From a virus (taxonomy: Duplodnaviria; Heunggongvirae; Uroviricota; Caudoviricetes), in the IMG/VR virus record IMGVR_UViG_2778261139_000010: DNA of 16,410 nucleotides; one strand, given 5' to 3'. The notes under the pieces are model-generated. The model was not told where the DNA came from, did not search any database, and saw only the letters and a list, made by a program, of their open reading frames with translations. Each line of letters starts with the position of its first letter. Position 1 is the stretch's first letter. Shown here piece after piece: positions 7,406 to 7,434 of this stretch. The translations under genes and the position numbers were made by a program.

Positions 7406-7434
7406 TTTGTTCGTGGTTGTTCCACGTTGTTCAC
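7406..7434 (+). promoter_or_regulatory. Array B: three TTGTTC repeats phased at exactly 10 bp (7407, 7417, 7427), upstream of the late operon
   Basis: TTTGTTCGTGGTTGTTCCACGTTGTTCAC. The 15-mer TTGTTCCACGTTGTT recurs at 14812..14826. Confidence 0.55.

Follow-up and report, generated by a model that had tools for sequence, protein, structure and literature searches.

Phased TTGT repeat arrays beside predicted integrase arm sites and at regulatory regions of a capsid-forming phage-inducible chromosomal island, with AlpA as their probable binder

Introduction

Recombination directionality factors (RDFs) such as Xis, Cox, Apl and Vis bind direct repeats placed one helical turn apart, with extra copies at the promoters that they regulate (PMC7498355), and RdfS does likewise (PMC11963761). 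Here we describe phased arrays with TTGT cores in a viral DNA of 16,410 nucleotides (IMG/VR record IMGVR_UViG_2778261139_000010, Caudoviricetes; hereafter the window, meaning this whole stretch). The window is a capsid-forming phage-inducible chromosomal island (cf-PICI) of Escherichia coli integrated at the phoQ stop codon, an assignment made because its gene order matches the cf-PICI plan (bioRxiv 10.1101/2022.09.08.507074). We weigh whether the arrays are operators of AlpA, the small winged-helix protein that it encodes.

Several described systems resemble this arrangement in part. Phage P2 Cox and phage 186 Apl, like the proposed binder of the arrays here, have several direct repeats 10–11 bp apart, at attP and at regulated promoters (PMC7498355), and both proteins bind cooperatively, head-to-tail and with low specificity (PMC7498355). 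Cox and Apl differ from AlpA in protein family and motif, occupy one att arm and mainly repress, whereas the arrays described here occupy both arms and their proposed effect on the late operon is activation. The record of satellite P4 shows, at the late promoter of P4, P2 Cox boxes made up of three TTAAAG units with a spacing of exactly 10 bp. The P4 protein Vis bends att DNA, and Vis sites overlap the integrase promoter (PMC7498355). RdfS of the integrative and conjugative element ICEMlSymR7A and TorI of the prophage KplE1 are winged-helix RDFs with att sites directly upstream of the integrase gene; int and/or their own promoter are further targets of their regulation (PMC11963761, PMC7498355). 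They differ from the present case in sequence (22–25% identity) and in the type of element, and neither controls a late structural operon.

AlpA proteins of the same family and island type have been studied genetically in the Gram-negative PICIs EcCICFT073 and EcCIEDL933 and in the PICMI satellites (phage-inducible chromosomal minimalist islands). Induction of PICIs and cf-PICIs, EcCICFT073 and EcCIEDL933 among them, requires AlpA, which activates its own promoter and the downstream genes, and AlpA overexpression leads to int-dependent excision and replication (PMC6092414; bioRxiv 10.1101/2022.09.08.507074). Transcription of alpA is itself induced by a helper-phage function (PMC6092414). In PICMI satellites, AlpA alone sets off excision and leaves transcription unchanged (PMC10803314). 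The literature searched, including these three reports (PMC6092414, 10.1101/2022.09.08.507074, PMC10803314), defines no AlpA binding site.

The Pseudomonas aeruginosa protein called AlpA is an antiterminator that exceeds 140 residues and has a ring-forming N-terminus like that of Q21; it acts through a single GGGACG element between −35 and −10 (PMC7969949, PMC9371919). It shares with PICI AlpA the name and a DNA-binding helix-turn-helix (HTH); the present arrays have several units each and are placed at the −35 element or upstream of it. In its targets, an intrinsic terminator comes after the promoter-proximal element (PMC7969949), and the second array of the window, too, has a terminator-like hairpin downstream. 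PICI AlpA is a 62-residue winged helix and therefore cannot work in the same manner, so antitermination of the P. aeruginosa type was ruled out on size and fold; antitermination by PICI AlpA itself is unlikely.

Results

Phased TTGT arrays are non-random and conserved

The arrays are phased, non-random and conserved; they do not depend on the integrase variant, and on the att arms they keep a fixed register with the predicted integrase arm sites. Across the islands, an array has 3–6 units at a spacing of exactly 10 bp, with the unit consensus TTGTTC(C/G)NNG (Table 1). The pattern TTGT-N6-TTGT-N6-TTGT gives five overlapping matches, all confined to three arrays within 16.4 kb, where shuffled sequences lead one to expect 0.01; 245,579 bases of flanking host and unrelated control DNA contain none. 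The lone heptamer TTGTKKC is not enriched in the window (15 found, 13 expected), and the signal therefore resides in the phasing. For array 1, a weight matrix made from arrays 2–4 of many islands, with array 1 left out, returned scores of 24.7–28.0, against a maximum of 12.1 across 200 kb of control DNA.

An earlier note on this DNA, written from its letters alone, had listed three arrays of TTGT(T/G)(T/G)C at about 10-bp spacing. All three lie where it placed them, and the phased pattern occurs nowhere else in the window. The spacing holds, the heptamer gives way to the longer consensus above, and the motif scan of island and homologs that the note proposed bears out the phased pattern; the control DNA, which the note had named as a possible refutation, lacks it, and the lone heptamer stays at chance level in the window. 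Array 1 does run in the opposite orientation, on the minus strand; its extent, given as 1279..1322, grows to five units starting at 1273. The 15-mer said to be common to the last two arrays, TTGTTCCACGTTGTT, is exact at both 7417–7431 and 14812–14826. The list had missed a fourth array and the 12-mer arm-type sites described below.

This fourth array lies beyond the window edge and was read in relatives with an identical int gene. In locus L001 (loci of our collection carry L numbers), whose integrase is 100% identical to that of the window, the 90 bp before the int ATG contain TTGTTCCAGC TTGTTTCACG TTGTAGCCCT TTGTGCAACG ATC GGTGTAGTTAAT GGTGTAGTTAAT. The left-end module of L001 and the right-end module of the window (14802–14868) form a 76-nt direct repeat with 78% identity. 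A second, degenerate phased array, with nnGTTT units at a 10-bp period, was seen in L001 (2839–2888), L008 (15619–15668) and L009 (7758–7797); it fills the core-proximal left arm, so that almost the entire arm from the att core to int is helically phased.

Selection on the arrays was read from alignments of alleles. The int–alpA spacer is represented by 23 distinct alleles, and column counts were made on the 18 that passed filtering. Within array 1, variable columns number 2/20 in the TTGT (ACAA) cores versus 12/30 in the six-base spacers. The L007-type allele has non-homologous flanks, yet carries a six-unit array at the array 1 position. Array 3 is invariant in 12 alleles, with flanks that vary at 21/120 positions, and some alleles of array 2 have a single core change, to TTGC or TCGT. 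Judged from these alignments, conservation of the cores is strong, not absolute. The arrays are kept across replication modules (RepA helicase versus primase) and across four insertion sites, islands with arrays being integrated also at tqsA, rcnR-thiM and fis. In L019, the counterpart of array 1 lies just downstream of alpA in direct orientation.

Direct repeats at 10 bp are typical of replication iterons, and array 2 directly follows a PerC-like gene, so we considered whether the arrays serve another island function, as iterons, as sites of the PerC-like protein or as packaging signals. TTGTTCC arrays also stand right after a Prim-Pol/helicase gene, at a probable origin, in unrelated viral contigs. 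The window has an iteron-like repeat of its own, six copies of AAAGTGAG after repA, and the arm arrays are unchanged where a primase replaces the RepA helicase; we reject the iteron reading because AAAGTGAG takes that role and the arrays persist when the replicase type changes. As to PerC, L009 has no PerC-family match among its called genes, yet its left-arm arrays are present, and the PerC reading was rejected too. A cos region would be expected near terS, which speaks against packaging signals. Taken together, these other functions seem to us very unlikely.

Four GTTGTTCC(C/G)N units at 10-bp spacing and then an inverted copy recur in many IMG/VR contigs, L074, L076 and L078 among them. Such GTTGTTCC(C/G)N arrays stand directly after a Prim-Pol/AAA_25/winged-helix replication gene in unrelated viral contigs, where they are probably origin iterons.

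Separate 12-mers are the likely integrase arm-type sites

Beside the arrays on the att arms we found a second set of repeats. In the P4 record, the annotated 'attP arm sequence repeat' consists of tandem 12-mer pairs that flank the core, with the int-proximal pair just upstream of int, and the GGTGTAGTNNNT pairs here share this layout. Within the window, exact GGTGTAGT occurs at 14845, 14857 and 14927 only, that is, at att only. The last four bases of the 12-mer co-vary with one segment of the arm-binding domain at the integrase N-terminus, in four variants. Segment NLSVRHSTSGLL accompanies 12-mer GGTGTAGTTAAT in the window, L002, L007 and L050; NLSVKYLTSGKL accompanies GGTGTAGTCACT in L003, which lies in tqsA; GLEIKHSKGGKL accompanies TGTGTGGTCAGT in L008, L019 and L054; and GLSIKVTKSGVM accompanies GGTGTAGTCATT in L009, at fis. 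L003 has an AlpA identical to that of L001, but a different integrase and different 12-mers; L050 has an L008-type AlpA, yet the 12-mers of the window. Because the 12-mers co-vary with the arm domain while the AlpA type is uncoupled from them, we assign them to the integrase, as its likely arm-type sites.

The earlier note had named both an AlpA- or excisionase-type protein and the integrase arm domain as possible binders of the TTGT arrays, with a preference for AlpA. On the alternative reading, the integrase N-terminal domain would bind the arrays as further arm-type sites, and Int could act on transcription through the internal copies; P4 Int is a precedent, being a repressor of its own promoter. 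Int carries an Arm-DNA-bind_3 domain, and, in the manner of arm sites, directly oriented arrays stand on either side of the core; in phage lambda, the consecutive arm sites P'1–P'3 are spaced at roughly 10 bp. Beside every arm array, however, stands a separate 12-mer pair of P4 layout, whose sequence changes with the integrase segment. Across all four arm-domain variants, with integrase identities of 55–100%, the TTGT arrays are the same or nearly so, and their constancy therefore weighs against arm-type sites. Arrays are found at distances of 1.3 kb and 7.4 kb from the core as well, and GGTGTAGT at att only. Measured against P4-type arm sites, the TTGT arrays thus show no covariation with the integrase, and those at 1273–1322 and 7407–7436 are internal rather than confined to att. 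We regard the integrase as quite an unlikely binder of the arrays, and of the two proteins named in the note, AlpA is the one that fits as predicted binder.

In every related island the gap from array to 12-mer pair is exactly 3 nt, the right arm of L009 being the sole exception, in a survey anchored on the 12-mer pair and not on TTGT. This fixed junction suggests contact between the two predicted bound proteins.

AlpA is the candidate encoded by the island

The locus has three features of an RDF array: at least three direct repeats one turn apart, a position on an att arm beside arm-type sites, and a small winged-helix RDF encoded by the same island. The AlphaFold model of AlpA is a winged helix only (predicted local distance difference test score, 87), and its best solved match is the GIsul2 excisionase 8c3t (template-modelling scores 0.79/0.86), with RdfS, Pukovnik Xis and TorI also matching. 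Domain searches of the window proteins found AlpA as the only excisionase-fold protein encoded there. Phased direct repeats beside arm sites and at regulatory regions mark proteins that are both RDF and regulator, and AlpA is the only such candidate encoded; for these reasons we think that the TTGT arrays are probably RDF-type operators of AlpA. The genetic results on AlpA cited above (PMC6092414; bioRxiv 10.1101/2022.09.08.507074; PMC10803314) agree with this reading.

Array presence was compared with AlpA type among the islands collected here; an AlpA-based scan of genome contigs had yielded three loci, one of them useful, and a word-indexed protein search 19 close matches. Islands with strong arrays always encode an AlpA at least about 57–60% identical to that of the window, and in most of these proteins the helix reads xR(S/T)(C/T)R(Y/F) and the wing LGGRSVGW. 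The late-operon array scores above 33 in 29/29 loci whose AlpA has the wing GGRSVGW, including L061, with a capsid only 69% identical; L091 (AlpA 60% identical, wing GKVSVSW) has a late-operon array as well. Where the island encodes an AlpA-like protein of 47% identity or less, or an HTH_17 regulator, the array is absent or marginal. Three phased TTACCC units replace TTGTTC in L062, L057 and L056, which have an HTH_17 regulator, and L055 and L056 differ in the repeat region with capsids 98.7% identical.

The distant cf-PICI L062 also has four copies of AAGTACTTAAC at 20-bp spacing upstream of its HTH_17 regulator gene (4686–4756). These are a different phased-repeat system, in a position analogous to the alpA upstream region.

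A factor that the island does not encode could also read the arrays, either a helper-phage activator of the CII type or a host response regulator of the OmpR/PhoB type. In favour of this reading, alpA is induced by a helper-phage function (PMC6092414) and an array lies in the int–alpA spacer, and phoPQ adjoins the island. Tetranucleotide repeats of 10-bp period at a −35 element resemble the sites of lambda CII, and the arrays differ from these in core (TTGT, not TTGC) and in number of units (3–6, not 2). CII-like proteins recognise TTGC-N6-TTGC, and lambda CII sites straddle the −35 region. Domain searches of the window proteins revealed no CII-like gene in the window. PhoP boxes have 11-bp spacing, and since the arrays moreover travel to other insertion sites, a PhoP-box reading was rejected. 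Array 1 is remote from the predicted alpA promoter and inverted to it, the 3-nt register with the arm sites speaks for an accessory protein of recombination, the arrays move with the island to tqsA, rcnR-thiM and fis, and array presence follows AlpA type. An external factor as the binder is, in our judgement, unlikely, and AlpA remains the reading that we prefer.

Regions around the internal arrays

The internal arrays lie in the int–alpA spacer and upstream of the late operon, with weakly predicted promoters in both regions. Array 2 is preceded by two weaker T-rich units (7386–7406). Its last unit would provide the −35 element of a tentative late promoter, picked out by eye (Table 1), and L061 keeps the TTGTTC–16 nt–TATTTT geometry despite a different spacer. 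This geometry would fit, tentatively, a weak promoter that is activated from its −35 position. Further downstream, a structured leader of 191 nt (7456–7646, z −4.1) ends in a terminator-like hairpin that abuts the capsid ATG; L061 has an equivalent hairpin followed by T8.

The two T-rich units contain a conserved box, TTTGTAAATTAT (7394–7406). All cf-PICI lineages examined, L055–L063 among them, carry this box ahead of the capsid operon (with small variants in L056 and L063), also where TTACCC-type units and an HTH_17 regulator replace TTGTTC and AlpA.

Array 1, which runs opposite to the other arrays, lies in the interval from the int stop (1230) to the int/alpA terminator. Its position would suit autoregulation or control of transcription across the int–alpA boundary, and we go no further than that. 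Two to three phased ACAA cores (1523–1562) lie over −10 to +20 of the predicted alpA promoter in all three allele types. Scored as an array, this series reached 6.2–6.3, under the control maximum, so chance may account for it and it was rejected as an array.

Gene content and boundaries of the island

Gene calls place a RepA-type helicase, a single-stranded DNA-binding protein and the PerC-like protein between alpA and the head genes, and the HK97-type head and packaging set of the window is complete (capsid, protease, portal, connectors, HNH, TerS and TerL). Islands nearly identical to this one occupy the roxA–phoQ interval of 43 complete E. coli genomes.

Three-way alignment of the K-12 empty site, which reads GGGCATATTT, the attL of L001 and the attR of the window gave G(G/A)CATATTT as the att core. 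Because this core overlaps the phoQ stop codon, the island runs right up to phoQ and the phoQ 3' end is regenerated on integration; the earlier estimate that island DNA reaches to about 120 bp of the stop was too conservative. The left junction lies about 180 bp ahead of window position 1.

The six copies of AAAGTGAG occupy 6224–6412, directly downstream of the RepA helicase gene (0.39 copies expected by chance), and are a probable, iteron-like replication origin of the island. An open reading frame for 522 amino acids directly after alpA (1888–3456) is missing from the otherwise 98% identical L001 island; it has no match in Pfam, NCBIfam or PADLOC, stands in a slot for accessory genes and could encode a defence or other accessory function that has gone unrecognised. 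L001 has a 225-bp gene between two copies of a 28-nt terminator-containing repeat (10298–10325 and 10651–10678). The window has one copy (7355–7383) and is without the gene, as if recombination between the repeats had deleted it. An Rfam search of the window found no known RNA.

Table 1 Positions of arrays, arm-type sites, genes and control elements in the window and, where indicated, at the left end of L001
Feature	Position	Strand	Description
Array 1	1273..1322	−	Five 10-bp units: TTGTTCGTGA TTGTGTCACG TTGTTGCACA TTGTTTCACG TTGTATCTGT
Array 2	7407..7436	+	Three strong units: TTGTTCGTGG TTGTTCCACG TTGTTCACTG; after PerC terminator, upstream of capsid operon
Array 3	14802..14841	+	attR: TTGTGTCTAT TTGTTCCACG TTGTTTCATA plus degenerate fourth unit CAGTGCACCG
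Fourth array	L001 2912–2951		Beyond window edge; 50–90 bp upstream of int, in relatives with identical int
Tandem 12-mers, right arm	14845..14868	+	GGTGTAGTTAAT GGTGTAGTCAAT; predicted integrase arm-type sites
Third GGTGTAGT copy	14927..14938	+	GGTGTAGTGATA; 3 nt from att core
12-mer pair, left arm	L001 2955–2978		
att core, right island boundary	14942..14951		GGACATATTT; overlaps phoQ stop codon
int	1..1230	+	P4-type tyrosine integrase with N-terminal arm-binding domain; PF13356 (Arm-DNA-bind_3), PF00589
Terminator-like hairpin, int–alpA spacer	1414..1450	+	GGCATAAAA / TTTTATGCC; A-run ahead, T-rich behind; z −3.4; all alleles
Predicted alpA promoter	1515..1543	+	TTGCCA, 17 nt, CACAAT with TG; −35 element kept in all alleles
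alpA	1605..1793	+	62-amino-acid winged-helix AlpA-family protein; Pfam PF05930, E 5e-18
Intrinsic terminator after PerC-like gene	7366..7391	+	Immediately upstream of array 2
Tentative late promoter	7427..7454	+	Last array unit TTGTTC at −35, 16 nt, TATTTT (7449–7454); by eye
Terminator-like hairpin, capsid leader	7610..7646	+	GTCCTGG...CCAGGAC + T7; abuts capsid ATG (7647); AGGA motif in 3' stem; z −3.5
phoQ open reading frame	14950–16410	−	Stop codon 14950–14952

Discussion

The best-supported account of the arrays together with AlpA is a further case of operators for a dual excisionase and regulator, with P4 Vis as the nearest relative. P4, too, is a satellite with a P4-type integrase and tandem 12-mer arm repeats on both sides of the core, and Vis, like AlpA, is a small AlpA-family (PF05930-like) protein, annotated as 'excisionase and transcriptional regulator'. 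Vis is about 48% identical to L008-type AlpA over the aligned part, and the AlpA of the window is more distant. P4 differs in having no TTGT arrays; unlike in P4, the island has an array on both arms, and its late operon is a complete capsid and packaging set. Fillol-Salom et al. hold that the roles of Vis and PICI AlpA differ (PMC6092414).

We propose the following sequence of events. AlpA expression is switched on by the helper phage, as published, and AlpA monomers would then line up head-to-tail, one per 10-bp unit, on a single face of the helix and bend the DNA. On the att arms, the arrays stop 3 nt before the predicted arm-type 12-mers, so AlpA on the array would assist in positioning or orienting the N-terminal domains of the integrase and would drive excision. 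At the 3-nt junction, the last AlpA unit and the first integrase arm site would share one helical face. By analogy, this register resembles lambda Xis beside the P2 arm site and suggests cooperative assembly of an excisive complex. Array 2, at or just upstream of the −35 element of a weak promoter, would activate the late (capsid and packaging) operon, and the inverted array 1 would serve autoregulation of AlpA or control across the int–alpA boundary.

Several observations weigh against AlpA as the binder or against parts of this scheme. RDF sites usually occupy one att arm only, which gives directionality, whereas here the composite module of array and 12-mers is on both sides of the core, only L009 being one-armed, with a right arm without it. 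Expression of an EcCICFT073 Pint-lacZ fusion was unaffected by AlpA (PMC6092414), though the array lies just upstream of int. About 230–270 bp and a terminator-like hairpin separate array 1, which is inverted, from the predicted alpA promoter downstream of it. At array 2, the late-promoter call is tentative because a consensus promoter scan finds nothing there, nor upstream of int, and because the −35/−10 spacing is lost in the L158/L091 lineage. The hairpin between array 2 and the capsid ATG means that control of initiation alone may not suffice; judged from its predicted fold, expression of the late operon may need terminator read-through or translational unmasking too. The co-occurrence of arrays and AlpA type is a correlation within related elements, confounded by shared ancestry, and is not proof. 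The pairing of regulator and repeat is, furthermore, inconsistent in distant cf-PICIs, where L060 combines an HTH_17 regulator with an L055-type region. Finally, a collection-wide scan for three TTGTTC at 10 bp matched at least 120 viral contigs, most of which are unrelated and have tandem repeats or probable iterons, so the motif by itself is unusable as a PICI marker.

A bolder form of the AlpA reading, which we rate as a long shot, joins all sites into a single switch. AlpA filaments would build the excisive complex through integrase contact at both 3-nt junctions, would turn on a capsid promoter in which the array replaces the −35 element, and would act together with a gate formed by the leader terminator that hides the ribosome-binding site. 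If this were true, the late switch would be independent of the late activators of the helper phage. In a more radical variant, a helper-phage protein would read the arrays, and these would be the induction signal that has long been sought in Gram-negative PICIs.

Gram-negative PICIs, those that form capsids included, have AlpA as their master switch, and these islands spread virulence and defence genes. The present analysis provides a testable map: predicted AlpA operators on the two att arms, close to alpA and ahead of the capsid operon, with separate integrase arm sites and an exact att core. If AlpA binds the arrays, its action as a transcription activator in E. coli PICIs and as an excisionase in PICMIs would be reconciled, and a sequence signature would be at hand to annotate this class of satellites and their boundaries. 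The arrays are the predicted missing cis-elements of the induction switch of Gram-negative PICIs.

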